Origin: a virus
Lineage: Duplodnaviria; Caudoviricetes
IMG/VR virus record: IMGVR_UViG_3300042518_001073
Location: 1 to 62,409 of that record
Reading direction: 5' to 3' (one strand)
Length of the DNA: 62,409 nucleotides
A program made the translations under genes and the position numbers. The notes under the pieces are model-generated. The model was not told where the DNA came from and ran no database searches. It saw nothing but the letters and a program-made list of their open reading frames with translations. Shown piece after piece: positions 27,792-62,409 of the stretch (positions are counted from its first letter, which is position 1; each line of letters starts with the position of its first letter).

Positions 27792-29957
27792 TTATCGGCC
27801 CCTAATTTTTGCCGGAGTTACGCCCATCCACAGAACTTCTGTGACATTAGGCGGAAGTCTAGCAATTTCTTCCTCACTATAGACGGCCGGCGGCAAGCCC
27901 AGATTGGACTTTACGCGCTCAAGAACCTTAACCTTTTTACGGGCATCGGCTACTTGGTCTGGGGCTAGGGTGGCTCCCACACTACCCGGAGCGGTGTCCG
28001 CCTTTGCACGATTGTCAGCAAGTGCCTGATCAATCATCGTCGACAAGGCAATAAGCTGTGTGCCATAGGCCTCGGGATCCTTAAGAAGCGCGGGCTTCAA
28101 CTGCAATACGCCTTGCAGCATGCGCTGCTCGGTGACGCTGTTTTGTGCGCTCTTCAAGAATGCCTCGACGACCTCTTCTGTCACGAGGTTGGCTTGCGAA
28201 CGAGCAAGTGTGATCTCGCGCATAGGATCGCCAAGGCCCGGTACTTGCGAAATTCCGGCATAAACCGTGGCAAATGGCCCAGCGATCTTTGCGCGATCGC
28301 GCCAGAGCGATACTGGAGAGGCCATTGCCTCTTCTCGCGGCAGATAATTTGGTTCGTCGACAGGGCGATCGGCAGGACGGGCAGTGCCTGCCACGGTCGG
28401 TTCACGGCCGCCCTCAGAGAGCAGTGGCTCGGGGGTTTCGACCGGAGTTTCGCTTCTAGGCGGCGTTGTGCTGGGCGGGGCTTCCGTACGCGGCAGTGTG
28501 ACTGCACCTGCGGTCGGGACGCCGGATCCACGCACGCGACGCGCTTCCGTGACGAAGTCTGGCAGGCGGTTGCCTGGCAGTTCTTGGTAGCCACTTGGTT
28601 GACGTGTAACAGGATCAACGACCGCTTGGTATTTTGGCTGTGTCCAGCTCGTAATTGCCGAGTTGACAAGATTCGTTTCTTGCGGAGTTGATTGCCCCGC
28701 AGCGAAACGCTCTATGAGCCCGGGTGTATTGAAGACGTTCATCTCCCACTCACCACGCGTGCCTGTCGCAGCGGCTACGCCACTACGCATCTGTGCCGCA
28801 CGCGATCTAGCGTCGGCCGTTAAGACTGTGTTGAGGATGGAACGCTGCTCGGTGGCCAACTTAGCGTTGAGGTTTTGAATCTCATCACGATCCTTCTCGC
28901 CCGCCTGGAGAGCCAAGAGGCGCAACTGACGTTTCGTGTCCTCAATGTCCGACACGCGCTTCTGTACGGCGGCGGGCAGGTTGCTGAACGCACCGGCAAG
29001 ACGCGCCATGGGCGAGCCGCGGAGGACTTCGCCGCGTGGGCCGCGATTCGCGGCGAAGTTTAGTGCCGCACCAGCAATGTCAAAAAGTAGTCCTGACTGC
29101 GAAGCCGACTTATCGGGAGCCAGAAGACTCTCATATTCCGGGAGTCGTGATGCCATGGCCTCTTTAAGCGTTGGAACAGGCGCAGCCCTTTGTGCCAGCG
29201 TACGTGCCGCTTGCATCTGCGCAAAATCCACCAGCTCCGGCGAATACAGCAGGTTCGCCGCAGAAGTGCGGTCCTCGGGAAGGCCTTCTTCGTCCGCTTG
29301 GGTCACGCCTTCCTCGGTTGACCCGTTCTTAAAACGCTGGACCAGCCCTCCGTCCTTCATCTGGATCGGCGGCATGCCTTCTGGCGGAATAGGTTGACCA
29401 TCTGGCCCAATCATCGGGCCAGCGCCCGGAGGAGGTCCGCCCGGCGGGCCACCCGGTGCCATGCCGCCCCCGGGAGGAGGGCCGGCAGCAGCAAGAAGTG
29501 CGGCCATATCACCGCCGGCAGGCGGCGGGGGTCCACCAGGAGGAAGCGGCGGAGCCCCGGGAGGCGGCGCTCCCATGTCTCCTCCCGAGGGCGGCGGCAT
29601 TGGAGGTTGTGGCCCTTGAGCCATGGGCCCTGATTGTGGAAGCGCGCCAAGTCCGCCCTGTTGCGCGAGCACGGGTTGGAGCATGGCGAGCACGGCATCC
29701 GGTGTTTCGGCTGCCGCGTCGTAGCCGACGAGATCGGCGAGCTCTTCGCGACGCGCATCGACTGAGCGCATGTCACCGCGAAGATTGTTCATGAGGATTT
29801 CAGGCGAATCGGGGCGACGATTGAGAACGCGTGCGGCGGAGGACTCTTCCGAGCCTTCCTCCTCCTCGAGTTCGTCTTCTTCCTCGCCCACCTGGTCGAG
29901 GAATCCCTGCATGATTCCGACGTTCTCGACGTCGTCGTCCATCATTTCGTTTTTCAT
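27792..29957 (-). CDS. Internal virion/ejection protein
   Basis: Acidic N-terminus, Pro/Gly linker, MKDGG motif, helical body. Confidence 0.7.
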   Translation of the reverse strand: MKNEMMDDDVENVGIMQGFLDQVGEEEDELEEEEGSEESSAARVLNRRPDSPEILMNNLRGDMRSVDARREELADLVGYDAAAETPDAVLAMLQPVLAQQGGLGALPQSGPMAQGPQPPMPPPSGGDMGAPPPGAPPLPPGGPPPPAGGDMAALLAAAGPPPGGGMAPGGPPGGPPPGAGPMIGPDGQPIPPEGMPPIQMKDGGLVQRFKNGSTEEGVTQADEEGLPEDRTSAANLLYSPELVDFAQMQAARTLAQRAAPVPTLKEAMASRLPEYESLLAPDKSASQSGLLFDIAGAALNFAANRGPRGEVLRGSPMARLAGAFSNLPAAVQKRVSDIEDTKRQLRLLALQAGEKDRDEIQNLNAKLATEQRSILNTVLTADARSRAAQMRSGVAAATGTRGEWEMNVFNTPGLIERFAAGQSTPQETNLVNSAITSWTQPKYQAVVDPVTRQPSGYQELPGNRLPDFVTEARRVRGSGVPTAGAVTLPRTEAPPSTTPPRSETPVETPEPLLSEGGREPTVAGTARPADRPVDEPNYLPREEAMASPVSLWRDRAKIAGPFATVYAGISQVPGLGDPMREITLARSQANLVTEEVVEAFLKSAQNSVTEQRMLQGVLQLKPALLKDPEAYGTQLIALSTMIDQALADNRAKADTAPGSVGATLAPDQVADARKKVKVLERVKSNLGLPPAVYSEEEIARLPPNVTEVLWMGVTPAKIRGR

Positions 29958-29972
29958 GTGTGTCTCGACCTA

Positions 29973-32837
29973 TTAACCGAAAAGTCCGGCCTTTGCCGCG
30001 CCTGCCGCGGCCGTCAACCCCGCAAGGCCGATGCCTGCGGCCTGTTGGAACGGGCTCGCGGAGGGTTGGCTGACCGCTGTCGTCGCCATCTGCGTGGACG
30101 GCGCACCGCGATAAATGTCTGACAAGAACCCGAGCTGCTGATACGGAGCATAAAGTCTCTGCATCTGCGTCGCACGCTGCGCATCGAGTCCTTGTTGGTT
30201 GAACGCCTGCTGCGCCTGACCGACGTTGTAGAGGAAGTTGATGTCCGACTGCTGCATGCCTTGCGCAGCCTGGCCGATGCCGAGCTGGTTAATGGCCTGC
30301 TGGCCGTACTGCTGGCCCAACGCGCCAAGGCCGGTCGCCATTTGCTGGCCGATGCCGAACTGCTGGCCTGCCAGTGCGCCCACGCCTTGGGCAATATTTT
30401 GGAACTGCCCTGACTGCTGGCCGTAGATACCGGCAAGTGCCTGCGCGGCGTTCGTGCGGCCCGCACCCTGCTGCATGAGCAGATTCGAGATGTTTTGTTG
30501 GATGTTGGACTCTTGTCCGGCAAGTGCACCCTGCTGCGAAGCAAGGTTGCCGTAGCCCTGTGCAGCCTGTTGATAAAGACCGGCAGCGGACTGGCCCAAA
30601 CGCGCTTGTTCCACGCCTAACTGACCGAGGCCTTGACCGGCAGCGATCTGCTGCTGCGAAAGGTTGCCGTAGAGGCCCGCAGCGCCCTGCCCAAGCTGTG
30701 CTTGCTGCACGGCTTGTTGCCCTGCGGTCTGGCCGATGTTGGCGATCTGCCCCGCAGCCGCTTGCTCTGCCGCAGCACGCTGCGCTTCGAGCGAGCCCAT
30801 GGCTTGCCCCGCCTGTACGCCAAGTCCTGCTTGCTGGGCCGCGATCTGCGCAGCCTGTTGCTGCAAGCCGGCCTGCTGCCCCGCCTGCTGCGAGAATGCG
30901 CTGCCGATGCCTTGGTAAAGCTGAGACTGTTGCGCAGCCTGTTGCTGCTGCGTTTGCTCGAGTTGTGCCATTTGCATCGCGGTGTTCGCATCGAACCCCG
31001 CCTGCTGGAAGCGTTGCTGCGCAGCTTGGAACTGGAGCTGCGCCTGTTGGCCCGTGAGCTGGCCCTGGAGCCCCGCTTGTTGTGCCGCGAGCTGGGCAGC
31101 GGTTTGACCAAGCTGCGCTTGTTGCACGCCCGCACCAATGCCTCCGGTGCCTGCGGCCTGCATCATTTGTGCAGCCTGTTGGCCGAGCCCCGCCTGTTGC
31201 GCGGCAGTGGAGGCCTGCAACTGACCGGCTTGCGCGAGCTGCTGCGCGGCTTGTTGGCCGAGCCCCGCCTGTTGCGCCGCGACCTGTGCCGCCTGCCCCC
31301 CGAGTTGGCCCGTGGCCTGTGCGCCTTGAAGCGCGCGCTGCTGTTGCTGCTCAAAGGTGGCCATCGCATTGGCCTGAGCCTGCGAGTAGCCCTGCGAGAG
31401 AAGGTTGGCAATCGTGCCGGCCTTCTGCTCAAGCAGACCGCGCTGCATCTCTGCGCGCTGCACGCCTTCGCGTTCGCCACCGAATGCGCCTGCACGAACG
31501 GCCTGCGCTGAAAGCCCCTGTTGCGCAATGGCTCCCTGACGCTCGATCTGCCGCATCGACTCGTCGATGACCTGCTGGCGGTATGGGTCCATGAAGGCCT
31601 GCGCACGCGAAGGATCGTAGCCCTGCGTGCCACCACCGATCGCACCGATGCCCTGCTGAATCGCCTGCTGCGCAGTCTGGAAACCGGGCTGCTGCGCCGC
31701 TTGCTGTGCTTGTTGCGCGGCTGTCAGTGCCGTGCCAACACCCTGTTGGAACCCCGGCTGCTGCGCGGCCTGCGCCGCTTGTTGCGCGCCTTGATATAGC
31801 GCACCGATGCCCTGTTGGATCGCCGGCTGGGCGGCAGCTTGCTGCGCCATGGCAATGGCTTGCTGGCCCTGGCCGATTGCTTGCCCAAAGCCTGGCTGTT
31901 GAGCGGCTTGCGATGCCATGCGGGAGGCCTCTTCGGCCGTGAACCCCGCACCCTGCAATCGCGCCTGTTCGGCAGCAAAGTTAGACGGGCCCGCTTGTCC
32001 CGCCGCACCCATCGCGGCCCCCAGTGCCCCTGTCGCTTGGGCAAACCCCGGCTGGAAGGCCGCTTGCTGGGCCATTTGTATGGCCTGCTGCCCAGTGCCA
32101 AGCCCTTGTCCGATCGTTCCCTGCGCACCGGCCATTTGCGGCACACCGGCCGCTCCCGCAGCGCGCTGCGCAGCGTTCATCAAAAGTTGTTGCGAGCCGG
32201 AAAGGTCCGCACCGGCTGCCCCCGCAGCCATGCGCTGCGCGTCGGAAATACCGCGCATGCCCTGACCGATCGCGGCGGTGGCAGGCGTCAGATCCGCCTG
32301 TGAGGCACGCGCCGCCATGTTCTGCGACGTGGCAAGTGCATTGATGCCGGTGCCGATGTCTTGGTATGCCGCACCGAAGCGACCCGTGGTGTCCGCGGCC
32401 AGCGCACGCTGCCCCGCCAGATCCATGTAACCAAGGCCCGTATTGATCTGATTAATACCGCCGCTCATGCCCGCAGCGGCTGCGCCGGCTTGCCGCATGG
32501 CGGCCTGCGCATCGGTAAACTGAGCACGCGTGTCTGCGCCACGGAGGATGTCGCCCGCTTCACGGGTCGCGGTCATCGCGCCTGCGAGGCCCTGGTTCGC
32601 GGCTGTTACATACGGCGAGAACGCCCCGACGCCTTGCTGCTCGGCAGCACGCATCGCAGCGATTTGGGCCGGGGAGAAGCCAGCGACCTGATAACCCGGA
32701 AGCTGTTCAGCAAATCCCTGCTGCGTGGCAAGGTCTCTCGCCTGCTTTAAAAGGTCAAGCTTATAGGCTTCGATCTCCGGGGCTTCCCGGACGATCTGTT
32801 GCTGAATGCTGGTGTCTGCTCCTGCTACGCTTGCCAT
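29973..32837 (-). CDS. Gln/Ala/Gly-rich DNA pilot/ejection protein
   Basis: FMDPYRQQVID...GAFGG core; C-terminal glycine-zipper hydrophobic segment. Confidence 0.7.
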   Translation of the reverse strand: MASVAGADTSIQQQIVREAPEIEAYKLDLLKQARDLATQQGFAEQLPGYQVAGFSPAQIAAMRAAEQQGVGAFSPYVTAANQGLAGAMTATREAGDILRGADTRAQFTDAQAAMRQAGAAAAGMSGGINQINTGLGYMDLAGQRALAADTTGRFGAAYQDIGTGINALATSQNMAARASQADLTPATAAIGQGMRGISDAQRMAAGAAGADLSGSQQLLMNAAQRAAGAAGVPQMAGAQGTIGQGLGTGQQAIQMAQQAAFQPGFAQATGALGAAMGAAGQAGPSNFAAEQARLQGAGFTAEEASRMASQAAQQPGFGQAIGQGQQAIAMAQQAAAQPAIQQGIGALYQGAQQAAQAAQQPGFQQGVGTALTAAQQAQQAAQQPGFQTAQQAIQQGIGAIGGGTQGYDPSRAQAFMDPYRQQVIDESMRQIERQGAIAQQGLSAQAVRAGAFGGEREGVQRAEMQRGLLEQKAGTIANLLSQGYSQAQANAMATFEQQQQRALQGAQATGQLGGQAAQVAAQQAGLGQQAAQQLAQAGQLQASTAAQQAGLGQQAAQMMQAAGTGGIGAGVQQAQLGQTAAQLAAQQAGLQGQLTGQQAQLQFQAAQQRFQQAGFDANTAMQMAQLEQTQQQQAAQQSQLYQGIGSAFSQQAGQQAGLQQQAAQIAAQQAGLGVQAGQAMGSLEAQRAAAEQAAAGQIANIGQTAGQQAVQQAQLGQGAAGLYGNLSQQQIAAGQGLGQLGVEQARLGQSAAGLYQQAAQGYGNLASQQGALAGQESNIQQNISNLLMQQGAGRTNAAQALAGIYGQQSGQFQNIAQGVGALAGQQFGIGQQMATGLGALGQQYGQQAINQLGIGQAAQGMQQSDINFLYNVGQAQQAFNQQGLDAQRATQMQRLYAPYQQLGFLSDIYRGAPSTQMATTAVSQPSASPFQQAAGIGLAGLTAAAGAAKAGLFG

Positions 32838-32838
32838 C

Positions 32839-35232
32839 TTAGTTACCCTTCACGTTGCCGCCTTCCAGCATCTTCATGAGTTTATACATCCGACGTGCGC
32901 CTTTGCGACGACTGCCCTGGCCCGCGTTGCGTACGGCTTTGGCCGTGAACACGAACTCGCCGTCCGAAAGCATCGCCGGGATTGAATCCGACGTTCCCGT
33001 GCCCGGTCCGTTGATCGGGCCGGTTTTACGCGGGAATTTCGTCGGCTGCCCGCCTTTGCGAAGCCCCTGAACGCCCATAATCCCCCCTCGATCAAGTGCC
33101 TGTACGGCCATTCCCGCCTGCTGCGCAGCTTGAGGGCCTGCGAACAGCATCGCTTCGGTCTGCGCGACATTGACGGGGTTGCTCGTCGCCGCGCGAACGG
33201 CGTTGTCTACCGCTCCACCCCGTGCATAGCCCGGCGGACGGGAAGTGGGCTGCACAGGATTTCCATACAACAGCGGAACGCCGTAAAGCCCCGAGACATT
33301 GTACGGCTGCGGAACACCGCCCGGCATGTTTGTCACCGCCCCTGGGGGCGGCATGTAGGTCGGCGTCGGTGAGATCGGCAACGTAGATATCGTCGACGGT
33401 CCAGTAGAAGTCGACCCCGCACTAGGCTGCCCCAGTCCATAAGAGGGCGTTTCGACGACCGGATTGTACGGTTCGAGCTTCGTCGGCTGGACGCGGTTCT
33501 TAAAGAGCTCCGGGTTGTCGCGGATGTAGTCCGCTCCGGTGTAATCCCGATCAAAAAGCGGGTTTTCTTCGGCTTTTCCGGCCTTAAATCCGCCCGTTGC
33601 GCCCGTAACAGCCAACGCGGTCGCTACTCCGGGGGCGTACTTGCCAAGGGCGGTTGTCGCCTTCGGATTGACGAGGAAGGCATCCGTGAAAGTGCTCGTC
33701 GAGGGCTTTTCAAAGAATTGCCCAACGCGGCCAAAGAACGTATCCGCAGGGGCCACGCCTGTCGGAGCCGCCGTTGTCGGCATTCCGGTTGAAGGCGTTG
33801 CGGCCGCCGTGGGCGTAATGCTTCCCGGCGCGTTAATCCCGTAGGCAGAAGATCTGTAAGGAACGGCGGATGACGCCGGAGCAGCCGGGCCTTGTGGGGC
33901 GGCGCCTTCGGGGAAGTACTGCTGCCCAGTCTGTCGGACAATCAGTGATTCGGGGGTGCCTCCTGTGGTGGGAGTACGGTAGGCCGCTCCGCCTTCTGGG
34001 CTAAACGCTGCGCCTTGCTCGCCCCCCAGGGCCACTTCTCCCGTAACGGGAGCAGGCGGAGCCTGTTGCCCTTGCGAACTAAACTGCGACATATCTCCAC
34101 GCATTTCAGGAGATTGCGTAGCTTTCGCCGCCGCCGCATTCGCACGAGCGGTTTGAATGCCCGTCATGATGCCGCTTTGGAGGCCCATGCCGAGCGCTTC
34201 TTCGGTGCCCATGCCGGCCAACTTGCCAATACCCGCGCTGGTGACGCCCGCGCCAATGCCCTGCGCAACTGCGCCGCCCGGAGTGACACCGGGGATTCTG
34301 CTAGCGAGTTCTGCAACTTTGCCAACAGGATTTATGCCGCCGATCGTACCGCCTGCGCCAAAGTAACTAGTCGCGGCGTTGATCAGGAGGCTCTTGGCAT
34401 TGAGCTTTTCGCCTGCCATTGCGCTGACCGCAGCGGAGGACAGCGTCGCGCCTGCTGCGGTAGTCGCCGCAGTAGACATCGCAATACCGACCTTTCCTGC
34501 CGCCGCCGCGGCTGCCGGACCAAGGACCGTGGCAAGCGCCACCGTCGCAATGATGCGAACGATGGGGTTCTTAAGAATCTTCTTAACCGCCTTCTTGACC
34601 TTCTTGAAGATCTTCTTCAGGAAGAACTCAGGCAGCCCCGTCTCCGGGTTAATCGTGCCCGAACCGCCCATAGACTTGAGCAGCCGCGCCTCGGATGGCG
34701 TGATGTGAGCGAGCATCGTGTCGCCATTGCGGCCCCTGGAGGCAAGGTACTTAGCCATGTCGGCTAGTCCACCTTCGGCCATGGCCATGGGCTCAAGGCC
34801 TTCAACGACCGGGGCCATCTCCATCGGAGCCTGGGCGCCCTGCACCCCCGCCGCCCGGTATTCGTTCAGGGCCATGATGGCCATGCCGAGATATGCCGGA
34901 TCGTAGGCTTCCGGCAGGTCGTCATCGTCCATCATCCCCATTTCGATCAGCCGCTGGCGGATCTGGGGGTACTCGCTCGGGTTCTGGGACATGTACTCGA
35001 GAACTTCGAGTAGCGAGTCCACTTCGGTCGGGCTGAGATCGAGCTCGTCAATGCTCTCGCGAACGGCCTGTTTCACCGCTTCGATTTGAGCAGGGTCGTT
35101 ACTTGATGCCCCAAGCGCCGTCAGCGCGGCATCATACGTGTCCGCGCTCGATACATAGATCGGCTGGTTTGTGGGCCCCTGGTTTTGCATGGCCTGCCCT
35201 TCGGGCAGACTCATGATGCCTTCATTTTCCAT
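32839..35232 (-). CDS. Internal virion protein with tape-measure-like C-terminal motif
   Basis: GRNGDTMLAHI...INPETGLPEFF, hydrophobic segments, GPGTGTSDSIPAMLSDGEFV. Confidence 0.75.
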   Translation of the reverse strand: MENEGIMSLPEGQAMQNQGPTNQPIYVSSADTYDAALTALGASSNDPAQIEAVKQAVRESIDELDLSPTEVDSLLEVLEYMSQNPSEYPQIRQRLIEMGMMDDDDLPEAYDPAYLGMAIMALNEYRAAGVQGAQAPMEMAPVVEGLEPMAMAEGGLADMAKYLASRGRNGDTMLAHITPSEARLLKSMGGSGTINPETGLPEFFLKKIFKKVKKAVKKILKNPIVRIIATVALATVLGPAAAAAAGKVGIAMSTAATTAAGATLSSAAVSAMAGEKLNAKSLLINAATSYFGAGGTIGGINPVGKVAELASRIPGVTPGGAVAQGIGAGVTSAGIGKLAGMGTEEALGMGLQSGIMTGIQTARANAAAAKATQSPEMRGDMSQFSSQGQQAPPAPVTGEVALGGEQGAAFSPEGGAAYRTPTTGGTPESLIVRQTGQQYFPEGAAPQGPAAPASSAVPYRSSAYGINAPGSITPTAAATPSTGMPTTAAPTGVAPADTFFGRVGQFFEKPSTSTFTDAFLVNPKATTALGKYAPGVATALAVTGATGGFKAGKAEENPLFDRDYTGADYIRDNPELFKNRVQPTKLEPYNPVVETPSYGLGQPSAGSTSTGPSTISTLPISPTPTYMPPPGAVTNMPGGVPQPYNVSGLYGVPLLYGNPVQPTSRPPGYARGGAVDNAVRAATSNPVNVAQTEAMLFAGPQAAQQAGMAVQALDRGGIMGVQGLRKGGQPTKFPRKTGPINGPGTGTSDSIPAMLSDGEFVFTAKAVRNAGQGSRRKGARRMYKLMKMLEGGNVKGN

Positions 35233-35300
35233 AGGTGTCCTTTCCAGTTTGTGCCAAAGACCCTAAGACGGGTCGCGCGCCGGGAAAGGACGCGAGGATG
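35233..35300 (-). promoter_or_regulatory. Structured 5' leader occluding the RBS
   Basis: GTCCTTTCC pairs with GGAAAGGAC; inner GACCC/GGGTC hairpin. Confidence 0.55.
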
Positions 35301-35340
35301 ACTCGGATTATGGGGTAAGTTGTCAAGTGTTGTCCACCTG

Positions 35341-35673
35341 TTATGCCCGATCAATCTCTAGGTATGACAGGTAAAAATCAACGTCCGCGACGCTTGCGGT
35401 CACTTTCAATACGTCCCCCGCGATTAGTACACAGGGAACGCCCGAAAAGACGTCCATGGTCTGGCTCGTCGGCAGGGCATATGTCTTTAAGAGCTTGTAT
35501 GGCGTCGCTCCGCCGGCAGGGTAAATCGCCGCGCTGATGTTGGCGACACTGGCGTTGTCGTTCGTGACCCGAAGCGACGACAGGACGGCATTGTTGGCCG
35601 CAGGAGCCGTGTAAATGGTCGTCTCCGTAGCGGCGCTCGGGGTTAGATACAGGCGTAGGTATTTGTTTGCCAT
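35341..35673 (-). CDS. Small tail/structural protein
   Basis: TIYTAP...GDVLKVTAS...SYLEI, beta-rich. Confidence 0.7.
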   Translation of the reverse strand: MANKYLRLYLTPSAATETTIYTAPAANNAVLSSLRVTNDNASVANISAAIYPAGGATPYKLLKTYALPTSQTMDVFSGVPCVLIAGDVLKVTASVADVDFYLSYLEIDRA

Positions 35674-35674
35674 G

Positions 35675-38929: not shown

Positions 38930-38931
38930 GG

Positions 38932-48865: not shown

Positions 48866-49120
48866 TTAGCCGCAAGACCCGCCGTAGCGCATCTTCTTGA
48901 CCTTTTTCTTGGCCATGCCGCCCTTCTTGTATCCGCGCATCGGCATACCACCGCCCATCATGCCCATGGCCATTTCTTTGTGCTGGTTCATCATGCCGCC
49001 CTTGGCCGCCATGACAACCTTGCCAGTCTTCATGCTGGGTTCAGAGAGCATCTTGTTCTTCGGGCCTTTGCCCACTGCGCCGCCGCCACGGACGGCTGCG
49101 CCCATTCCACGACCTGCCAT
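48866..49120 (-). CDS. Small Met/Lys/Gly-rich basic protein with xxGG repeats
   Basis: AAKGG, MMGGG, YKKGG, MRYGG. Confidence 0.7.
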   Translation of the reverse strand: MAGRGMGAAVRGGGAVGKGPKNKMLSEPSMKTGKVVMAAKGGMMNQHKEMAMGMMGGGMPMRGYKKGGMAKKKVKKMRYGGSCG

Positions 49121-49121: not shown

Positions 49122-49292
49122 TTAGTACCCTCGCATCGCGCGACCACGCGCGTCTTTGCCGCCCTTCTTCATAGCACGGCCTTTCTTATCGGCCATGCCA
49201 CCCTTCTTCATCTTGCCGACGCCGTCAGCAGCGAAGGACGGAACCTTTTTACCGCCCTTCATAACCATCTTCATCTTGCCAGGCATTGTCAT
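49122..49292 (-). CDS. Small Met/Lys/Gly-rich basic protein
   Basis: VPSFAADGVGKMKKGG; AAGGAGG RBS. Confidence 0.7.
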   Translation of the reverse strand: MTMPGKMKMVMKGGKKVPSFAADGVGKMKKGGMADKKGRAMKKGGKDARGRAMRGY

Positions 49293-49306: not shown

Positions 49307-49633
49307 TTAACACTTCCACCGACGACGCGCTTGACGGATCCGACTATTCGGATTCTTAGCGGCCTCGGGGTACATCTTCATCTGCCCCGCCGAACGAGCG
49401 CAAAAAGACTTGCGCCGTTTGGCTCGAGCAGGGCCAGGGGTACTTTCCGTTACTGCGGTCTGAAGCTTGCTGCCGGGATTGGCGCGACGGTATGCCGCCA
49501 CGCCTTTCCTAGTCATGCCCGCCCCGGATTTCGTAGAACGGAAGTTTCCGCTTTTGACCGACGTGGCAATGCCCATGCCTTTGCGAACGGCACCGCCGCC
49601 ACGAAGAGCCAGGCCCATGCCGTTACGTCTCAT
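49307..49633 (-). CDS. Basic conserved protein (DUF6321-like)
   Basis: GMTRKGV...NPGSKL...RRKSFCARS...RRWKC. Confidence 0.75.
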   Translation of the reverse strand: MRRNGMGLALRGGGAVRKGMGIATSVKSGNFRSTKSGAGMTRKGVAAYRRANPGSKLQTAVTESTPGPARAKRRKSFCARSAGQMKMYPEAAKNPNSRIRQARRRWKC

Positions 49634-50873: not shown

Positions 50874-51782
50874 TTAGGCCGCACCAGGCGAACCGAAGAT
50901 GCCTCTCGGATCAGAAAATCCGAAGCTGTACCGCTCTCGCGCTTTATAGCGCACGTTGCCGGTATCGAAGTCGCCCTCGAAACCAGTCTTGATGGCAACA
51001 CGCTGGAACATCTTCATGCCGTTCGGGGCGTCGGTCTTGATAAACCAAGCGTCCGGGTCGGTCAGGAAGTGGTTCACGGTGTAGCCCTGCGGCACCATGC
51101 CCATGTTCTTCACGGCGTTGATGTCGTTATCCGCAGTGCCAACGCGAAGCGTCGACTTGAGGATACGGTCAGCCGTAAACATGAGTTCCTTCGGGATGAT
51201 GAGCTTCAAGCCCTGAACAGCGATCTTCAAGCCACGCTCGTCGGTGAACGCAGCGATGTCGATCAAAGCCTGCTCAAGGGAAGTTTCACTCAGGTCAGCG
51301 GAGGTCGCCAGCTCGTTCTTCAGATTCGGGCCCGAGAGGGTCGGGTGGTCATCTGCGCAGAGCGGCTTTCCGTCGCCACCAAGCGAAGTCGTGAACGCGC
51401 CGTTGAGCACGCTCGCCGCCTTGATCTGCTTGGTCTGAGCCATGGAACGGGCCAGCGCCTTCGTGTAACGCGCCGAGAGACGGTCGTAGAGGTTGTCCTC
51501 AACGGCTTCTTCGGTGAGCGAGAACGCGAGGGCGACAGTCTCGTGGGTGTAGCGCGCGGTGTAGACTTCCTGCGCCTGGTCGTATGCAACGCCAGCGCCT
51601 TCCGTCTTAACCGGAGCTTCCGCGAAACCCGATTCCATCACTTCTTCTTCAAACGCACGATCGGAGCTCTCGACCGAGTAGATCTCGGCGTGCTCGTTCT
51701 CGTAGTTCTTGTACTCAAGGCCGAACAGGGCATTCAAGCCCGGCTCGAGTTCCTTGACCAATTGTGCACGTGAAATTGCCAT
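50874..51782 (-). CDS. Major capsid protein (Mu gpT-like, HK97 fold)
   Basis: MAISRAQLVKELEPGLNALFG, GGDGKPLC...HP, KARERYSFG. Confidence 0.9.
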   Translation of the reverse strand: MAISRAQLVKELEPGLNALFGLEYKNYENEHAEIYSVESSDRAFEEEVMESGFAEAPVKTEGAGVAYDQAQEVYTARYTHETVALAFSLTEEAVEDNLYDRLSARYTKALARSMAQTKQIKAASVLNGAFTTSLGGDGKPLCADDHPTLSGPNLKNELATSADLSETSLEQALIDIAAFTDERGLKIAVQGLKLIIPKELMFTADRILKSTLRVGTADNDINAVKNMGMVPQGYTVNHFLTDPDAWFIKTDAPNGMKMFQRVAIKTGFEGDFDTGNVRYKARERYSFGFSDPRGIFGSPGAA

Positions 51783-52379: not shown

Positions 52380-52400
52380 TTGATTAATCCTCTGAAAAAG

Positions 52401-52892: not shown

Positions 52893-52896
52893 AGTT

Positions 52897-53805
52897 TTAC
52901 TCCTTCACGTACTTGGCATATTCCTCGAGAGGAACGCCCAGCTTTTTAGCAATTGCCACTTGACTTGGCGTCAACCTGACAGTGCGGCGTGCAGCATTGT
53001 TGATCCCGGAGGATCGCGAGGCAGGCGCAACCGTTTGCACGTTACGGCCCCTGCTCTGCGTGCTCGAGCCGCTTTCCTGAAACTTATGCGGAAAAGCGTC
53101 TCGAATACGTTTGTCAAGCTCATCATAGTACTCGTCTGAGTTGGGGTCAACGCCGTCAACTTGTACCAACTGACGGTGAATGCCCCACGCGGCATGGGTC
53201 ATGACGGTGTCACGGCCATACCACTTGTTCTTCTCGGCCCACTCCTCGACCCGGGGGTCGACCTGTTGGACCTGCTGAACCGGCTGCTGGTAGGCCTGTT
53301 GTTGCTGCTGATAGGCCGCCTGCTGCTGCATGTAGGCTTCGCGCTGGGCATTGGCCGCCTGGATCTGCGAGTTCTCCAGGGTCAAGGCCGTCAGACGCTG
53401 CTGGGCCTCGGTTTCGGTGTCCACGTCGCCCTCTTCACGGGCCTTGCGGATGATCTGCTTGAGCGCCACGGCCTGGGTTTCGACCCGGTTCTGCGCCTCG
53501 ACGAGCCGCTCGGCGTCACTTCTCACGTACCGTTGCTCAAGCTCTTGCGCGCGCGACTGCACCTGCTTGGCATAGTCCAAGGCCGCCTGCTCACGGCGTT
53601 GGGTCTCGCGCAAACGAGCCGTCAGCTTGTCAATGCGCTTTTTGACCTTGTCACTGTAGTCATCGAGCTCACGCTCGTTCTTTTCCGATGCGGCCGCCTC
53701 GTTATTGACCTGCGGCAGCGTGGGAGTTTCCTCCTCCATCGGCACCTGGACGGTGGCGGGCTGTTCGCCCTCCCCGACACTAAATTCCAACTGTTCGTTT
53801 ACCAT
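52897..53805 (-). CDS. Putative scaffolding protein
   Basis: Coiled coil YSDKVKKRIDKLT; C-terminal LTPSQVAIAKKLGVPLEEYAK. Confidence 0.7.
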   Translation of the reverse strand: MVNEQLEFSVGEGEQPATVQVPMEEETPTLPQVNNEAAASEKNERELDDYSDKVKKRIDKLTARLRETQRREQAALDYAKQVQSRAQELEQRYVRSDAERLVEAQNRVETQAVALKQIIRKAREEGDVDTETEAQQRLTALTLENSQIQAANAQREAYMQQQAAYQQQQQAYQQPVQQVQQVDPRVEEWAEKNKWYGRDTVMTHAAWGIHRQLVQVDGVDPNSDEYYDELDKRIRDAFPHKFQESGSSTQSRGRNVQTVAPASRSSGINNAARRTVRLTPSQVAIAKKLGVPLEEYAKYVKE

Positions 53806-53817
53806 CTAGAACTCTCC

Positions 53818-54285
53818 TTACCACATGTGAAGGACGTCTTCAGGATCGTTCACGACCCCCAAGACCTCGTCATCGTTGATGAGCCGGATCTCGCCGCCGT
53901 CGATGGGGATACGCGCTCCCGCATAACGGCCAAAAATGATCCAATCACCCTGCTTGCACCACGGGCCGGTCGGGAACTTGCCCTCGTCGGCGTAGGCGAT
54001 CGGACCGACCTTCAAAACGTAGCCGCATACAGTCGTCAACTGCTGCTTGCGCTGCGTCTCTTCGGAAAGAGCGATGCCGCCCTTGGTCTTCTCAGCCCCG
54101 CGATACGGGAGAATGGCGATACGCCAGCCCGTAGGCGTGGGAATGCGATCCACCACCGACTCGTCGAGTTTCTCAGGCTTGAACCCTTCGGCCGTGTAGG
54201 CGTCCTCTAGGCTCGGCACGTGTTTGGCTGCCTCTTCCGCCCACTTCTTCTCAAGTGCGGTCGGCTCTTTTGCTGCTGCGCTCAT
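53818..54285 (-). CDS. groES: GroES-like co-chaperonin
   Basis: PTGWRI...KTKGGI...VLKVGP...GD.IIFGRYAG...LINDDEV. Confidence 0.9.
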   Translation of the reverse strand: MSAAAKEPTALEKKWAEEAAKHVPSLEDAYTAEGFKPEKLDESVVDRIPTPTGWRIAILPYRGAEKTKGGIALSEETQRKQQLTTVCGYVLKVGPIAYADEGKFPTGPWCKQGDWIIFGRYAGARIPIDGGEIRLINDDEVLGVVNDPEDVLHMW

Positions 54286-54294
54286 AAGTCTCCT

Positions 54295-54495: not shown

Positions 54496-54552
54496 GGTAG
54501 GTTTCCATGAAAAGCAGACGGTTTTGCGCACCGTCCGAAGCGCTTAATCAAC

Positions 54553-54792
54553 TTAATAAATCTTGACTGGGCGGTTACCGTCCTTTTTCTTGACCGTACG
54601 CACACCACCGCCGGTGCCCATCTTGCGCGACTTGCCCGCCTTGGCGTACGCAATCGCTGCGGCCTGCTTCACAGCAGCGCCCTTGCTCTTCGGCTTGCTC
54701 GTGCCAATGCGGCCCTTCTCTTTGTAAGCCCCGACGAGCTCGCCGATGTTGCGGCTAATCGTCTTCTGGCTTGATCCTTTCTTAAGCGGCAT
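54553..54792 (-). CDS. Small basic protein
   Basis: MPLKKGSSQKTISRNI...KQAAAIAY. Confidence 0.75.
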   Translation of the reverse strand: MPLKKGSSQKTISRNIGELVGAYKEKGRIGTSKPKSKGAAVKQAAAIAYAKAGKSRKMGTGGGVRTVKKKDGNRPVKIY

Positions 54793-57109: not shown

Positions 57110-57127
57110 GTTGTAATCCTAGTACGT

Positions 57128-59002
57128 TTAGTCGCGGCCGTAAATGTTTTTCGCGTCCAGTGACTTTTTATACCCCTCCAGAAGAGGCGTTAGATACGAT
57201 GAAGATTCCTCTATAGCAATGGGCTTGATGCTTTGATCTAGGAACTGATAAACCGAATAGTCATAGTTGCTTGGTGGTTTATTGCCCGTAGCGCGACCAT
57301 TGCCCTTGATCTGCGAAACAATCGGACCTTGCTTGGTGTTCTTTACCTCGATCGTTGTCACCGGACGGTTGCGATCGTCCCGTAGCGAATAGATCGATAC
57401 ATCACCATTAACAAACCGTTGATAGGCGTCAGGGCCGTATCCGCCACCCTTCGAGTATCCGCCTACGGAATGTCCTACATATGCCCCTTCTGGAGCAGTA
57501 GCCTCTGGATCTTCGATCTTACGCCAAGTGAACCCAGGATTCGGGCTGTCGTCCCCAAAGGTCAAAAGCGGGGCGCTGACTCCTTCTGTAAACACACGAT
57601 CTGGAACTCGCCGACCTGCCTTAATGTCCGCAACAATCGAATCACGTTCCATGAATCGCTTGTTGTATTTAGCAGCATTGATTAACGCGTCCTCGAAACG
57701 AATGCTTTGGATTTTGTTCGCAGGCAGTGTGCTCAAGTATCGAACAAGCATCCTTTCGTCAAACGCGTGTTGGAGAGAGCCTTTTGGAGACATGGTGTAC
57801 AAGGGCTCCCCTTTCTCCATCGCGCGCTTTAGGTTCTCAGGGAGTTTTTTCTCACCCGCCGCTTCCAGGAGCGCAGACATGGTGGAGTCATACACTCCTG
57901 GAAAACGATCTCCGGCCGGTACAGCCAGTTCCATTTTGACATTGGCCTGGGACACAGGAACGCCCTGTGCCAGCAGCTCTTCGATTTGTCTTTCCTGAAG
58001 CCCCATTTCCTGGGCGCGAGCAACGTCCGTTTTCCAAGTGCCTTCTGGGTTTAACAATGACGGATCGTTTCTGTAGACGTACGACTGTACGTTAGCCAGT
58101 TCGTCATAACGTCGAGTAAGGCTTGGCAACAGATCAGGGTACTTCGGAAAGAACCGTGTCTCCCCCGTTGGGGATACCTTGGTTTTACCTTGAGTTAGTG
58201 CGTCAATACGATCTCGCGGGAAATCATCCATCATCTTCGTGTTGGATAGATCGCCACGCAGGATTGCTTTGAAAACCGGATCGTTTGGTGTTCCAAACTG
58301 TTTTACAAAATAGTTCTTTGCTTTGTTTTCAAAGAAAGTCTTAATGGCCGTTTTCTGCTCTAAACTCAGTGGTTCCGTTGTGTACTCAACAGTCCGCTTA
58401 CCGTCACGAACGTACCTGTCTACAAAACTTCTTGGGATGTCTTTGTCATAAACCCCAGTGACAACCTGACCGATGTTCTCTGGGCGAGAAGCCTCAAGTT
58501 TGGTCCGAGTGCGGCGCCCCGGAGTAATGTTGCCTGCAATGAACTCCGTCATACTGGCTGGGGATTTAACAGCTTCCGCCCCAACGTCTACAAAAGCAGA
58601 AGCTAACTTACGCGCGGCCGCAACAGGATCTCCTGCCGCTTCTGCCATCGCTTGGTTGGCCATGTCAAAAGTTTCCCGACTCTGTGCGGGTGCGGTGCCA
58701 CGAAGCTCTTCAGGCGATCGCTCGCGAATAGACTGCATCAGCCCGCCAAGATAGTCTCGTGCGGATCCAGCTAATTGCTTCGTGCCCTCAAGCGCGCCCG
58801 TAATGCCACGGCCCGCGGCGGCACTAAGTACTTGCGGGTCGTACGCCTCGATGTCCCGCCAACTCGGCTGCTCGGCAGGAGCGGCCGTCGGAAAGCTCGT
58901 CGGCACCGAGCGCAGCAAATCCGCGCTCGTCTCGCCCGTACGCGGGCTGCCGTTCGCGCGGCGCTTCGGTCGTACTTTGAGCCCTGCCAGTGCGTTCTTC
59001 AT
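57128..59002 (-). CDS. Putative capsid-packaged protein with C-terminal PcfJ-like domain
   Basis: EG..VGHSVGGY...IYSLRD...PVTTIEV...QIKG..; lower-GC body. Confidence 0.65.
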   Translation of the reverse strand: MKNALAGLKVRPKRRANGSPRTGETSADLLRSVPTSFPTAAPAEQPSWRDIEAYDPQVLSAAAGRGITGALEGTKQLAGSARDYLGGLMQSIRERSPEELRGTAPAQSRETFDMANQAMAEAAGDPVAAARKLASAFVDVGAEAVKSPASMTEFIAGNITPGRRTRTKLEASRPENIGQVVTGVYDKDIPRSFVDRYVRDGKRTVEYTTEPLSLEQKTAIKTFFENKAKNYFVKQFGTPNDPVFKAILRGDLSNTKMMDDFPRDRIDALTQGKTKVSPTGETRFFPKYPDLLPSLTRRYDELANVQSYVYRNDPSLLNPEGTWKTDVARAQEMGLQERQIEELLAQGVPVSQANVKMELAVPAGDRFPGVYDSTMSALLEAAGEKKLPENLKRAMEKGEPLYTMSPKGSLQHAFDERMLVRYLSTLPANKIQSIRFEDALINAAKYNKRFMERDSIVADIKAGRRVPDRVFTEGVSAPLLTFGDDSPNPGFTWRKIEDPEATAPEGAYVGHSVGGYSKGGGYGPDAYQRFVNGDVSIYSLRDDRNRPVTTIEVKNTKQGPIVSQIKGNGRATGNKPPSNYDYSVYQFLDQSIKPIAIEESSSYLTPLLEGYKKSLDAKNIYGRD

Positions 59003-62000
59003 TAACGCTTCTTCCGCTTTACCGCCCCGCCCCTGGCGTATCCCGTACGCTCTTCCTTCGGCAGGATCTTCGCCTTGTTCTTCTCGACATACTCGCGCGC
59101 CAGACGCACGACATCCTGCTCATCCTTCGCACGCTGACCAATCTCCCGCCCAAGCGCATCGTTAAAACGATCCATTTCACGCTCGGCTTCCGTCTGCCCC
59201 GGCGAGCCCAGCCGCGACTCGTACGCCATGCTCACAAGGTCAGCAATCGTCGGATTCGTCTTGCGCGTTAGATCAGCCTGATACATCAAGTGCCGCATCG
59301 CATCCGCTTTGCCGCCACCTGACTCCTTCACACCAAACGCCGCGACCGACTCGCGCTCTGCACGGGCAGGAATGTCCGCAACGCCGAGCAACTCCGCCGC
59401 GCCACGCTTCAATTTCCGCGTGCCACGGCCCGCGTACTCCACAAGCTCGTCCAACTTCTCTCGCGCCGAGCTCTTCGCCTCGCCGCCTTCGTTAAACCGC
59501 TTCGCCAGCAGCTCGCCTTCGCGCGCAAGACTCGCCTGCGAAAACGTCGGCATGCCGAGCGTCTCACGGATTAACTCCATCTTCTGCCGCGACTCCTCGG
59601 TCTGGCGCTTGGTCCGTGGGCCTTGGGTCTTGGTGACCTCTTCAAACTCCATGGCCATGCCACGCGCACTACCGCGATCCGTCTCTTGACGAATCGGACG
59701 ACGCGACGTGCGACGGACGCTCTGTGAGGTGGGCGACAAACTGACTTCGGTCTTCGAGGACGCCGGCTGACTCATGAGCTGATCCAGCATCGAACGCGCC
59801 GAGTCGATGTCGCGATAGCCCTCGGCTTCGGTCTGCTCCTGCAACAACTGCAAGAGCTCCGCGTCGCTCGCAGGGCCGCCCTTCTTTCGTCCACCAGGCT
59901 TCACGGCTCCCGGCGAAAGGATCACGTTGCCGAAACGGTCCGTGTAGTACCCGGCGTTCTCAGCGCCGCCCAGCATGGTTGGGCCAAGGTTCGGATTCTG
60001 CCCAAGCGCCTGCAACGGGATGTTGCTCGTCAGGAGACTCGTCGGCGTCTGGCCCGTGGGGATCGTGCCCGGAGTCAAGCCGCCCGTGTTGGGATTGAAG
60101 AACGGCGTGCCGGTGCCCGCGCCAGGCATCGTCGGCAACGGAGCGGCCTGATATCCCGGAATGGGAATAGGCGTCGGCGTGTAGAACCCGCCACCGCCGC
60201 CCGGCGAAGTGACAGGAGGACTCGTAACAGGAGGCGCGCCGCCACCAGGAGGCATCACGGGCCCCGGACCGGGGCGCGCGGGCAGACCGCCGCCTGTCGG
60301 CGGTAACTCGGGGGTTTTTCCACTACCCGGCTCACGGGGGCGCGGTACATTTCCACCGCCCCTACCTACGCCACGGCCGATACGGTTGAGCAAACGGCCG
60401 ATGTCGGTATCGTCGCCGAAGAAGCCGTAGTTAAACCCAGGACGTGGACGAGCAGGGCCACCAGCCATAGGAATGTCACGTACGGGAGGCTCATCCTTCG
60501 TCGGTGGTTTTCCACCGCCCGTCGGGACTTCATCACGATCGTCAATGCCGTTTAGGTTGCGATCGATGAAGTCCCCTGTTCGCACATTACCGCCGCCCGG
60601 TACGGTGCCGCCAGTCGTCGGGGGAGGTTGAATGCCGCCACCGCCAGAAGGCGGAGGCTGTGCAGGAGGCGGCGTTGTCGGAAGAGGGCTGTCGATCAGA
60701 CCAGGAGGCCTTGCAACGCCGTCGCCACCGGGGCCACCGGCACCTGGGGCGCCAGTCCCTGGGCCGCCCGGAGTACCACCACCACGGTTCTTCTCTTCCT
60801 CCCTGCGACGGGCTTCCTCCTCGGCTCTACGGCGAGCCTCATCCTCCGCCGCCTTACGCGCGGCCTCGTCTGCAAGACGACGCTTCTCCGCCTCTTCGGC
60901 TACTCGACGGGCTTCTTCAGCCGCTCGACGAGCTGCTGCATCTTGTTCTTCACGTCGGCGAGCTTCTTCTGCACGACGAGCTGCTTCCTCTTCAGCAGCT
61001 CTACGAGCGGCTTCTTGTTCGGCAGCTTTGCGAGCAGCCTCTTCAGCGGATTTACGAGCGGCTTCTTCTTCAGCGGCTCTTTTGGCGGCTTCCTCAGCCG
61101 CACGACGATTGGCTTCTTCTTCAGCGGCACGACGGGCCGCCTCTTCTTCTGCCCTACGGGCGGCTTCTTGTGCGGCACGGCGTTCGATCTCCTCTTGAGC
61201 AATTCTCTTTGCCTGGTCGCCATAAGGCTTCCAAACATTCGTGATGTCAGGACGGTTGGCAAGATCCTCTTTACTGCGCAACCGCTTCAAATCCTCCGCC
61301 GCGGTGCCGCCAGTGGTAATCGTCTCGCTCTCTTCCGTGCGAGGGGCACGATCACGAGCTTCTTGTTCACGAATAAGAGCTGCTGTTCGCTCGCGTTCCT
61401 GCTGGCGAACGATCTCCGCCGCACGCTCGGCTGCGGCTTGTTCCTGTGCAACACGAGCGGCTTCCTGACGCGCGGCTTCTTGCCTTGCAGCTTCTTGTGC
61501 CGCGGCGGCCTGGGCAGCTTCTTCTTGTGCGCGACGGGCGGCGGCTGCTTCAGCAAGTCTGCGCTGCTCCTCGGCACGACGGGCTTCTTCGTCGCGGCGA
61601 GTGCGGACAGCATCTTCCCGTGCGACCGTCTCTTGCGCACGAGTGCGGGGCGTCGTTGCAGGCTGGGCCTGTTGACGCGGAGCTTGTTGACGGGGAGCTT
61701 GTTGCGCGGCGCGTGCTGCGGCAGCGGCTTGCTCTGCCTGCTGACGTGCAGCCGCCTCTTGCGCTGCACGTTCGGCTTGTTGTCGTGCAGCCGCTTCCTG
61801 CGCCGCACGCTCTGCCTGCTGACGCGCGGCCGCTTGTGCCGCTTGCTGACGGGCCGCTTCCTGCGCGGCTTGTTGTCTCGCGGCCTCTTGTGCTGCACGC
61901 TCTTCCGCTGCACGCATGGCCGCCATGTCCTGCGCAGCGCTGCCAGGACGAGCGACAGGCTCTTCCCGTTGTATGGGGCGAGTGACTGTCGTAGGGCGCA

Positions 62001-62409
62001 TCGTCTCCGCGGACGACGGGCCGGGACGAATGGATAGCGGGGACGGCGTTGGTTCCGCGACAGGTTGTGCCGCTGGCGGCGGAGCCGCAGCTTGCGGAGG
62101 CGGAGCAGTGGGCGCACCGAACAACGGCTGCGTCGCCGCAGGGGCGGAGAACGTCGGGGTCGGCTCAACAACAGGTTGTGCCGCTTGGTTGAGTTGGTTG
62201 AACTCCTCCAGTGCCGTCTCTGCCGCACGCGAGACACCCGGCTCGCGCGCAAACCGCGACGCTGCCTTGTATTCCTTCAGCTTGGTCTTCGGGTTCTTGG
62301 TCCCCGCGCCGCCGAGCTTCTTCAACAGATCACGGGCCGTGGAGCTTAAGTACGCAAGCTCGGTATCGCCGCCACGGCCAGCCGAGGCAACCTTCTTGAT
62401 AAACGCTGC
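59002..62409 (-). CDS. Large low-complexity virion/cargo protein, allele B, with DUF6973-like C-terminal domain (true start at 2566 via the circular join)
   Basis: E/R/A single-helix tracts, Pro/Gly region, DRNLNGIDD, ADAMRH...E...EMDRFNDALGREIG. Confidence 0.8.
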   Translation of the reverse strand, partial: AAFIKKVASAGRGGDTELAYLSSTARDLLKKLGGAGTKNPKTKLKEYKAASRFAREPGVSRAAETALEEFNQLNQAAQPVVEPTPTFSAPAATQPLFGAPTAPPPQAAAPPPAAQPVAEPTPSPLSIRPGPSSAETMRPTTVTRPIQREEPVARPGSAAQDMAAMRAAEERAAQEAARQQAAQEAARQQAAQAAARQQAERAAQEAAARQQAERAAQEAAARQQAEQAAAAARAAQQAPRQQAPRQQAQPATTPRTRAQETVAREDAVRTRRDEEARRAEEQRRLAEAAAARRAQEEAAQAAAAQEAARQEAARQEAARVAQEQAAAERAAEIVRQQERERTAALIREQEARDRAPRTEESETITTGGTAAEDLKRLRSKEDLANRPDITNVWKPYGDQAKRIAQEEIERRAAQEAARRAEEEAARRAAEEEANRRAAEEAAKRAAEEEAARKSAEEAARKAAEQEAARRAAEEEAARRAEEARRREEQDAAARRAAEEARRVAEEAEKRRLADEAARKAAEDEARRRAEEEARRREEEKNRGGGTPGGPGTGAPGAGGPGGDGVARPPGLIDSPLPTTPPPAQPPPSGGGGIQPPPTTGGTVPGGGNVRTGDFIDRNLNGIDDRDEVPTGGGKPPTKDEPPVRDIPMAGGPARPRPGFNYGFFGDDTDIGRLLNRIGRGVGRGGGNVPRPREPGSGKTPELPPTGGGLPARPGPGPVMPPGGGAPPVTSPPVTSPGGGGGFYTPTPIPIPGYQAAPLPTMPGAGTGTPFFNPNTGGLTPGTIPTGQTPTSLLTSNIPLQALGQNPNLGPTMLGGAENAGYYTDRFGNVILSPGAVKPGGRKKGGPASDAELLQLLQEQTEAEGYRDIDSARSMLDQLMSQPASSKTEVSLSPTSQSVRRTSRRPIRQETDRGSARGMAMEFEEVTKTQGPRTKRQTEESRQKMELIRETLGMPTFSQASLAREGELLAKRFNEGGEAKSSAREKLDELVEYAGRGTRKLKRGAAELLGVADIPARAERESVAAFGVKESGGGKADAMRHLMYQADLTRKTNPTIADLVSMAYESRLGSPGQTEAEREMDRFNDALGREIGQRAKDEQDVVRLAREYVEKNKAKILPKEERTGYARGGAVKRKKR

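Follow-up and report, generated by a model that had tools for sequence, protein, structure and literature searches.

The 62,409-base record analysed here, IMG/VR virus record IMGVR_UViG_3300042518_001073 (taken whole and called the window below), comes from a tailed virus (Caudoviricetes) and carries, in one class of its proteins, a short peptide tag in which a bulky residue is followed, after exactly two residues, by a Gly-Gly pair. This tag is real as a spacing-specific feature of that class, namely of the probable internal (ejection) proteins, and we describe it as a short linear motif with the consensus [M/F/Y, sometimes R/K/L]-[A/K/N]-x-G-G-[E/L/M/A]-[V/A]. It appears to mark the module boundaries and the C-terminal ends of proteins that would travel through the tail channel: the 32839, 27792, 59002 and 57128 proteins (named by the first coordinate of their genes) and three small basic proteins. 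Our preferred reading, which we hold only tentatively, is that machinery other than that of the phage reads the tag, with internal copies serving as cut points, in the manner of phage T5, and near-terminal copies as uncut docking ends, in the manner of phage lambda.

The initial annotation of this DNA had proposed a looser motif, [MFYL]-x-x-GG, shared by many virion proteins as a capsid-targeting or maturation-cleavage signal. The window phage is a podophage that encodes, next to a separate scaffold, a group of probable internal proteins, a label that derives from synteny, composition and the homology or annotation of relatives. The closest known phage is DSL-LC04 (OR003939.1), with 72% identity over 82% of a 6.2-kb head-module query, and the gene order in the window matches that of DSL-LC04.

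Occurrence and statistics of the tag

All 15 pentapeptides quoted in the initial annotation, as well as the variants RFKNGS and RRANGS, are present in the named minus-strand open reading frames (ORFs), at verified coordinates. As written there, the motif is weak and slightly above chance. Namely, it occurs 31 times in 38 late ORFs (12,509 amino acids (aa), 155 Gly-Gly pairs), and shuffling each protein internally gives 18.2 +/- 4.2, with 31 attained 3 times in 1000; sixteen non-late proteins contain 4 instances against 4.6 expected. At position -3 of the pairs in the late ORFs, Met is found 10 times against 3.8 expected, and Pro is more enriched still (21 against 8.4).

The form [MFY]-x2-GG gives a sharper result. 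Over the 5,839 aa of 10 proteins that are basic or probably internal, it occurs 17 times against 6.0 +/- 2.4 expected, a count that none of 400 shuffles reaches, in a class that was delimited partly after the data had been seen and that rests on synteny, composition and the annotation of relatives. In the same proteins, the spacings x0, x1, x3 and x4 give 5-9 instances against about 6, which is at expectation, and the other 29 late proteins contain 5 against 4.2 expected. As relatives, 72 loci were collected via the 32839 protein; of the at least 596 found via the 52897 protein, 80 were taken. In non-redundant orthologue sets from these, a refined tag, [MFY][AKRNEQ]xGG, is found 235 times against 60.5 expected in the internal groups and 23 times against 27.8 in the rest, counts that repeat inherited sites, so that the events are not independent. 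The scaffold, the adaptors and the 36385 protein are free of the tag; in the portal there is a single loose instance (MPAGG) but nothing of the refined form, and the capsid protein lacks the tag as well (refined tag 0 against 0.9 expected in 13 relatives). In other words, the enrichment of late over other proteins, which the initial annotation had put forward as a check, is present in the internal class and absent from the other late proteins. The claim that many virion proteins share the motif is overstated, about one third of the listed instances not being conserved.

Could the motif be mostly a matter of composition or chance in Gly-, Met- and Lys-rich proteins? The loose form, for one, is only 1.3-fold over the approximately 24 instances expected given the 155 Gly-Gly pairs, and in the whole DSL-LC04 proteome it is unenriched (31 against 27.1 +/- 5.2). 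Among 129 evaluable Gly-Gly sites, Met, Phe, Tyr or Leu stands at -3 in 12 of 38 conserved and 18 of 91 non-conserved ones (Fisher P = 0.11), and the motif was defined after the fact. These points speak for composition. The excess at the x2 spacing only, in the internal class, speaks against it. What is more, some sites are strictly conserved inside variable linkers, and one 7-mer occurs up to four times in single relatives. The 954-aa protein at 29973-32837 has 14.7% Gly and no tag, and its relatives are depleted of the tag (3 against 16.9 expected), unlike its neighbours. For the core set of sites, chance is already contradicted by conservation, recurrence and the excess by class and spacing, and we consider it very improbable as a general explanation.

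Conservation in relatives

At 10 of the 15 quoted sites, 90% or more of the orthologues have the Gly-Gly pair, and the two middle residues vary. In particular, it is retained at MKDGG of the 27792 protein (26/26), at MAEGG (36/36), YARGG (36/36) and LRKGG (14/15) of the 32839 protein, at YKKGG (27/27), at MRYGG (8/8 where the segment exists), at the first MKKGG (22/22), and at FNEGG (15/15), YARGG (8/9) and RKKGG (92% of 13) of the 59002 protein. Retention is partial at MGTGG (34/51) and MMGGG (9/19), and LDRGG (0/13) and the second MKKGG (3/22) are not conserved. Conservation in homologues, the absence of which would have refuted the motif according to the initial annotation, is borne out at the 10 sites and not at LDRGG and the second MKKGG, and most of the instances that it did not list (LPPGG, MAPGG, LSEGG, LVSGG, MYEGG, MPPGG, YSKGG) are non-conserved.

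At three linker sites, the key columns of the alignment are 0.86-0.94 conserved against 0.37-0.47 for the flanks. Codons at the tags vary synonymously, and therefore the constraint acts on the peptide and not on the DNA. A DNA-level repeat or recombination seam was considered as well and is ruled out by the same synonymous variation. The earlier placement of the motif at domain boundaries agrees with our results: conserved tags lie at the module seams and at the ends of the probable internal proteins.

The tape-measure-like ejection protein

The 32839 protein and its elements are as follows.

32839..35232, minus strand: tape-measure-like ejection protein, 797 aa; matches PHROG tape-measure families over aa 711-782 (best E value 3.6e-8)
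34768..34782, minus strand: MAEGG (aa 151); [MF]-A-x-G-G in 36/36 orthologues
34606..34713, minus strand: LAHITPSEARLLKSMGGSGTINPETGLPEFF module, nearly invariant in 38 orthologues
33214..33228, minus strand: YARGG (aa 669), in the variable linker that precedes the C-terminal module
32842..33063, minus strand: C-terminal module LRKGG...GPGTGTSDSIPAMLSDGEFVFTAKAV...KLMKMLEGG, common to siphophage tape measure proteins
32857..32871, minus strand: MLEGG (aa 788), five residues from the C-terminus; [MK]LEGG in 36/36 orthologues

There are 71 orthologous ORFs in the loci, and four tags are conserved, namely MAEGG, YARGG, LRKGG and MLEGG. The first of these lies upstream of the LAHITP...GGSGTINPxTGLPEF module, which recurs near the N-terminus of the 59002 protein (62275-62367); BLAST links aa 4-69 of the latter to the 32839 orthologues. 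In the two proteins and their relatives, the shared module reads (LA)HITPxExxxLKxxGG(S/A)GTxNPxT(G)L(P)E(F) and usually stands 25-60 residues downstream of an M-A-x-G-G tag. When the N-terminal module was compared with a phage collection, 4 records matched, none of them characterised.

The variable linker carries one or two tag copies (YARGG, LRKGG). At the site of aa 669, a bulky or basic residue occupies position -3 in 35 of 36 orthologues, 9 of the 36 read RAKGGE, and the key columns are 0.86 conserved against 0.37 for the flanks; this stretch has a predicted local distance difference test (pLDDT) score below 50 in the AlphaFold2 model. The C-terminal module, in which tags flank a segment of the form GPGTGTSDSIP...GEFV...helix, is modelled as a hairpin and two helices (pLDDT 70-76).

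The 27792 protein and the small basic proteins

Tags are also found in the following, shorter or less characterized proteins.

27792..29957, minus strand: acidic Pro/Gly-rich protein, 721 aa, probably internal by synteny
29319..29360, minus strand: MKDGGLVQRFKNGS, a tag together with an F-x-x-G-S variant; M-x-x-G-G in 26/26 orthologues
48866..49120, minus strand: basic Gly/Met/Lys-rich protein, 84 aa (isoelectric point (pI) 10.6 for the 93-aa ORF)
48917-48931, minus strand: YKKGG of the 48866 protein
48878-48892, minus strand: C-terminal MRYGG of the 48866 protein
49122..49286, minus strand: basic protein, 54 aa, with MKKGG at 49197-49211
54553..54792, minus strand: basic protein, 79 aa, just downstream of the portal gene, with MGTGG at 54607-54621

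The 27792 protein has no family match in Pfam or PHROGs and is syntenic with a hypothetical protein of DSL-LC04 that adjoins a 'DNA transfer protein'; at its tag, the alignment has F-x-[DEN]-G-S downstream. The 48866 and 49122 proteins are conserved, very basic and composed largely of tag copies, whose number varies among relatives; for the former, 27 non-identical orthologues have from 1 to 4 copies. According to the alignment, the true start of the 54553 protein is MPLKKGSS. Two further observations concern the 48866 protein. Many of its orthologues end in Gly-Gly plus 2-4 residues, Cys among them, and it has an N-terminal peptide, G-x-A-x-RGGGAV-x-KG, in common with the DUF6321 protein at 49307-49633.

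Exchangeable domains and gene fusion

The 59002 protein and its neighbour add a modular aspect.

59002..62409, minus strand: giant protein, more than 1135 aa, its 5' end cut by the end of the window
59875-59889, minus strand: RKKGG
59482-59496, minus strand: FNEGG
59026-59040, minus strand: C-terminal YARGG
59110-59382, minus strand: DUF6973 (PF22322), aa 1010-1100, Pfam 34.6 bits against a cut-off of 27
57128..59002, minus strand: 624-aa protein with N-terminal KRRANGSPRTGETS; RRANGS at 58946-58963

As the initial annotation had noticed, FNEGG (aa 972) and YARGG (aa 1124) bracket the DUF6973 match; for this region, the nearest cluster in the atlas is 75% DUF6973, with weaker hits (scores 0.85 and 0.83) to the serum-amyloid-A family. 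DUF6973 is bracketed by tags not only in the window, but also in four relatives (L130, L099, L108 and L083). The element [KR]RF-x-x-GGE is kept in 15 of 15 relatives and is followed by alternative C-terminal domains: DUF6973, as identified by Pfam, in the window and 5 relatives, other sequence in L087, L090 and L129, and, in L127 and L141, a different, HExxH-containing domain in the DUF6973 slot. In these last two (loci L127:1843-6333 and L141:1604-6646), the slot domain is approximately 230 aa long, has a conserved LAHEMAH and no Pfam family, and may be a zinc metallopeptidase. Relatives of the 59002 protein reach 1809 aa and contain [FMY]-x-x-G-G-E-[AVS] up to four times per protein; x-x-[FMY]-x-x-G-G-E-[AVS] has 26 instances in 11 of them, with synonymously differing codons.

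Polymorphic toxins and the MuF toxins of phages likewise have polymorphic C-terminal domains behind a conserved junction. The conserved RF-x-x-GGE with its alternative domains resembles this arrangement, but no toxin family or immunity gene was identified here, and the junction codons vary, which excludes a recombination seam in the DNA.

The 59002-like and 57128-like parts form one gene in five relatives (L141, L127, L129, L128 and L121) and two genes in the window and three others (L087, L089 and L090). The seam of the fused form reads (K/Y)RA(G/E)GS(P/T)xEGE, the same RRANGS element that stands N-terminally in the 57128 protein of the window, and the point of gene fusion or fission falls between two tags.

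Search for a protease

The initial annotation had found no recognisable prohead protease gene, and the same holds after our searches: none was recognised among 68 predicted proteins, several of which remain without a family. No peptidase family was detected when the 38 late proteins and 30 (Pfam) or 26 (PHROGs) others were scanned. PHROGs named 'head maturation protease' match the capsid protein in its capsid part only, and NCBIfam gave nothing useful for 14 window proteins. Sequence and profile searches of the Protein Data Bank (PDB) with the 52897, 52401 and 51801 proteins and the C-terminus of the 59002 protein had a best E value of 0.012. For the 52401 protein, one of three that the initial annotation had named for a search for protease folds, the AlphaFold2 model has a mean pLDDT of 68.8 and Foldseek returned 0 matches in the PDB at E <= 0.001; a wide VIA-align search gave a best Z of 4.3 to GNAT-like fragments, which is not meaningful. 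Regular expressions for HExxH, HxxEH and GDSG hit only the portal, a helicase and a doubtful 110-aa ORF.

These results bear on the analogy, drawn in the initial annotation, with the adenovirus protease (AVP), whose sites are (M/I/L)-X-G-G|X, and with pS273R of African swine fever virus (ASFV), which cuts at G-G|X. In such a reading, the phage would encode a maturation protease that cuts a core polyprotein behind Gly-Gly. Sites with Gly-Gly that lie in basic core proteins and in polyproteins are indeed a likeness; the layout, like beads on a string, recalls a polyprotein, and the small proteins share their basic character with adenoviral core proteins. However, the viral systems have one residue fewer before Gly-Gly, a cut after it and a virus-encoded cysteine protease, none of which was recognised here. 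In particular, the AVP-type spacing [MIL]-x1-GG is at expectation in the internal set (13 against 9.6 +/- 3.0), the credible genes lack HExxH and GDSG, no peptidase family was detected among the 68 proteins, the 52401 model has no protease-like match, the capsid protein has no delta domain, and there is a separate scaffold-like gene. We find this the least credible of the alternatives, with hardly any probability left to it.

Comparison with known phage proteins

A description of the tag was not found in the full-text literature searched, a coverage outside which most subscription journals lie.

The C-terminal 170 aa of the 32839 protein matched 336 phage records, mostly annotated as tape measure proteins of siphophages; in BLASTP, its C-terminal module matches the tape measure protein of JBD30 (E 7e-10) and lambda gpH (E 4e-4). 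The order of motifs is HFATGG...GEFVFT...YATGG in lambda gpH and GFASGG-GPGTGTSDSIP...RHATGG in JBD30 gp46. Like these, the 32839 protein has a bulky-A-x-G-G tag, (GPGTGTSDSIP)...GEFV hairpin, helices and a second tag; unlike them, it remains below the lambda-family TIGR01541 (no NCBIfam family at E <= 0.01, with 1.1e-134 for the lambda gpH control) and belongs to a podophage without a tail tube.

The occurrence of the tag in tape measure proteins is pertinent to yet another explanation, namely that it is a loading address whose binding to scaffold, portal or the inside of the capsid would carry cargo into the procapsid, the capsid targeting sequence of T4 being the analogue. In agreement with this, the tag is restricted to probable internal proteins, the small basic proteins consist of little else, and swappable C-terminal domains follow it. 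Nonetheless, siphophage tape measure proteins carry the tag although they assemble as part of the tail and never undergo loading into heads, because of which a loading address fits poorly, and several copies at internal seams of one protein would be superfluous for such a purpose. We regard it as quite improbable.

Lambda gpH loses a fragment of approximately 14 kDa from the Gly-rich region that adjoins the module, with the cut site unmapped, and its residues 818-849 are resolved uncut against gpI (PMC12617516). The latter segment contains MRDGG (aa 842-846), a parallel to the C-terminal MLEGG of the 32839 protein. JBD30, also considered as a cleavage precedent, was set aside: its position 1066 is a predicted Arg-C site and no measurement, a speculation of the authors.

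A mapped precedent for a cut is T5 pb2, in which cleavage after R1127 yields pb2* and pb2C (Linares et al. 2023, PMC10038345). The site reads FVPR|AEGGMM and contains one of 5 Gly-Gly pairs in 1219 aa. It fits [R/bulky]-A-x-G-G-hydrophobic, and it parts a C-terminal module from a protein that leaves via the tail; of the tags in the 32839 protein, MAEGGL and YARGGA have the same x|A-x-G-G-hydrophobic form as R|AEGGM. That said, T5 is a siphophage, the site is single, and its flanks have no detectable homology to the 32839 module. This one mapped cut at such a tag falls before A-x-G-G, and not after Gly-Gly as in the adenoviral comparison of the initial annotation.

Another processed protein is P22 gp7, from which the host peptidase OpdA removes the N-terminal 20 residues (note in record NC_002371.2), giving E20|KGGKGG. 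Here a podophage ejection protein is processed by a host peptidase beside Gly-Gly, and the window's 57128 protein has, for comparison, a 15-residue leader before ANGS; the difference is that P22 gp7 is cut one residue before Gly-Gly, with a Tyr four residues before it.

A more distant case is crAss001 gp45 (cargo protein C1), of which segments 214-245 and 425-552 have been modelled (Bayfield et al. 2023, PMC10172136). It has x-A-x-G-G sites at 206-210, 260-264, 424-428 and 559-563, and the modelled segments lie between them, a likeness in an injected cargo protein of a distant phage order. In this protein (L165, locus 11988-14516), the model of the portal-bound domain starts at A425 of N|AFGG and ends 7 residues before the next F-A-Y-G-G, and the tail-bound helix 214-245 lies between S-A-Y-G-G and F-A-E-G-G. 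The paper contains no words starting with 'cleav' or 'proteoly'.

One can also argue that the tag is a hinge and docking element of which no copy is cut in this phage. The Gly-Gly turn with its bulky anchor would then be a flexible joint for threading in an unfolded state, and the ends would dock on portal, nozzle or hub. Tags stand 3-7 residues from the C-termini of the 32839, 59002 and 48866 proteins and their relatives, where trimming so few residues seems pointless, and the uncut lambda MRDGG points the same way, as do the variability at -3 and the failure to find a protease gene; a virion proteomics study of phiRIO-1, a phage whose tag status is unchecked, reports no processing (PMC4819975). 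Against this, T5 pb2 is cut exactly at such a tag, plain linkers are rarely so conserved, and the supposed partners (hub, portal, tail lumen) are non-homologous across the phage types that bear the tag. We judge an entirely uncut tag to be only a little less probable than our preferred reading.

Genome organization

Nearly all genes of the window are on the minus strand. In addition to the genes given above, the following are relevant, in the order of the gene listing.

2610-4106: large terminase, first in the order, followed by the 59002 and 57128 genes
54782-57109: portal
53818-54285: GroES-like (Cpn10) protein of the head module, flanked by the portal and scaffold-like genes
52897..53805, minus strand: acidic coiled-coil protein, 302 aa, probable scaffold by composition and sequence
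52401 and 51801: two proteins without a family, between the scaffold-like gene and the capsid gene
50874..51782, minus strand: major capsid protein, 302 aa; its alignment to Pfam Phage_capsid_4 and phrog_371 starts at residue 1
49307, 49122 and 48866: cluster of small basic proteins, next after the capsid gene
48197 and 47194: SU10/Pam1-type adaptors
42174: tail spike
32839, 29973, 27792 and 24181: four large proteins; among their counterparts in DSL-LC04 are a 'tail tape measure protein' and a 'DNA transfer protein'

The 52897 protein has at least 596 relatives and no match in Pfam, PHROGs, NCBIfam or the PDB searches. The GroES-like protein has a 50-residue N-terminal extension and is conserved in 73 relatives. 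Between the tail spike and the adaptor region, at 45486-46457, lies an acidic protein of 323 aa (pI 4.1, 14.9% Gly) with zero Lys, Arg or Met after its GTG start. A GNAT acetyltransferase is encoded at 12270-12695, among the early genes; the T7 internal-protein assembly factor IVP-A resembles acetyltransferases (phiRIO-1 paper, PMC4819975). The ends of the record (1-2566 and 59784-62409) are 76-90% identical, with indels, and ORF 2..2566, on the minus strand, repeats the N-terminal part of the 59002 gene in diverged form, the right copy being without approximately 16 N-terminal codons. The record is probably a circularly permuted genome of approximately 59.8 kb assembled across two strain variants, with no true duplication.

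Mechanism and implications

How might the tag be used? If, as we tentatively prefer, it is read by machinery from outside the phage genome, internal copies would be separation points in a string of modules, and cutting would take place directly after the bulky residue, as it does in T5 pb2 (R1127|AEGG). The cutting agent would likely be a host peptidase, as it is, according to the P22 record, for gp7. Copies a few residues from the C-terminus would stay uncut and dock in the way that MRDGG of lambda gpH does against gpI.

Beside the statistical reservations given with the counts, several points weigh against this reading. Cleavage has been observed neither in this phage nor in any relative, and the phage has no recognisable protease gene. 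Various residues (M, F, Y, R, K, L) stand ahead of the presumed cut, an unusual variation for a protease site. In lambda the position of the cut is unmapped, and in JBD30 the cut is speculation on the part of the authors. As for T5, an hhalign comparison of the 32839-module alignment with the C-terminal 158 aa of pb2 was not significant (E 0.63 over 15 columns), and it pairs FVPRAEGG with FPRKTGP, so that the link is a 7-residue resemblance only. Finally, the AlphaFold2 model of aa 640-797 of the 32839 protein (28 sequences) has a mean pLDDT of 57, too poor for a fold search.

A bolder proposal, and in our opinion an unlikely one, is that bulky|A/K-x-G-G is a general code of tailed phages for separating into modules, or docking, the proteins that must pass the tail channel, with a conserved host peptidase or else the channel as its reader; its scope would be siphophage tape measure proteins, podophage ejection proteins and crAss-like cargo. 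If true, this would predict that the unmapped cut in lambda gpH lies near F733|A734, and it would explain the presence of one crAss001 cargo protein in both head and tail.

The building, loading, processing and release of internal and ejection proteins are among the least understood steps of phage infection; even for lambda gpH, the cutting enzyme and the exact place of the cut are still unknown (PMC12617516). A tag common to tape measure and podophage ejection proteins gives precise, testable positions in lambda and T5. Cargo modules of uncultured phages could be delimited by means of it, and it is possibly a handle for placing foreign cargo in phage particles.

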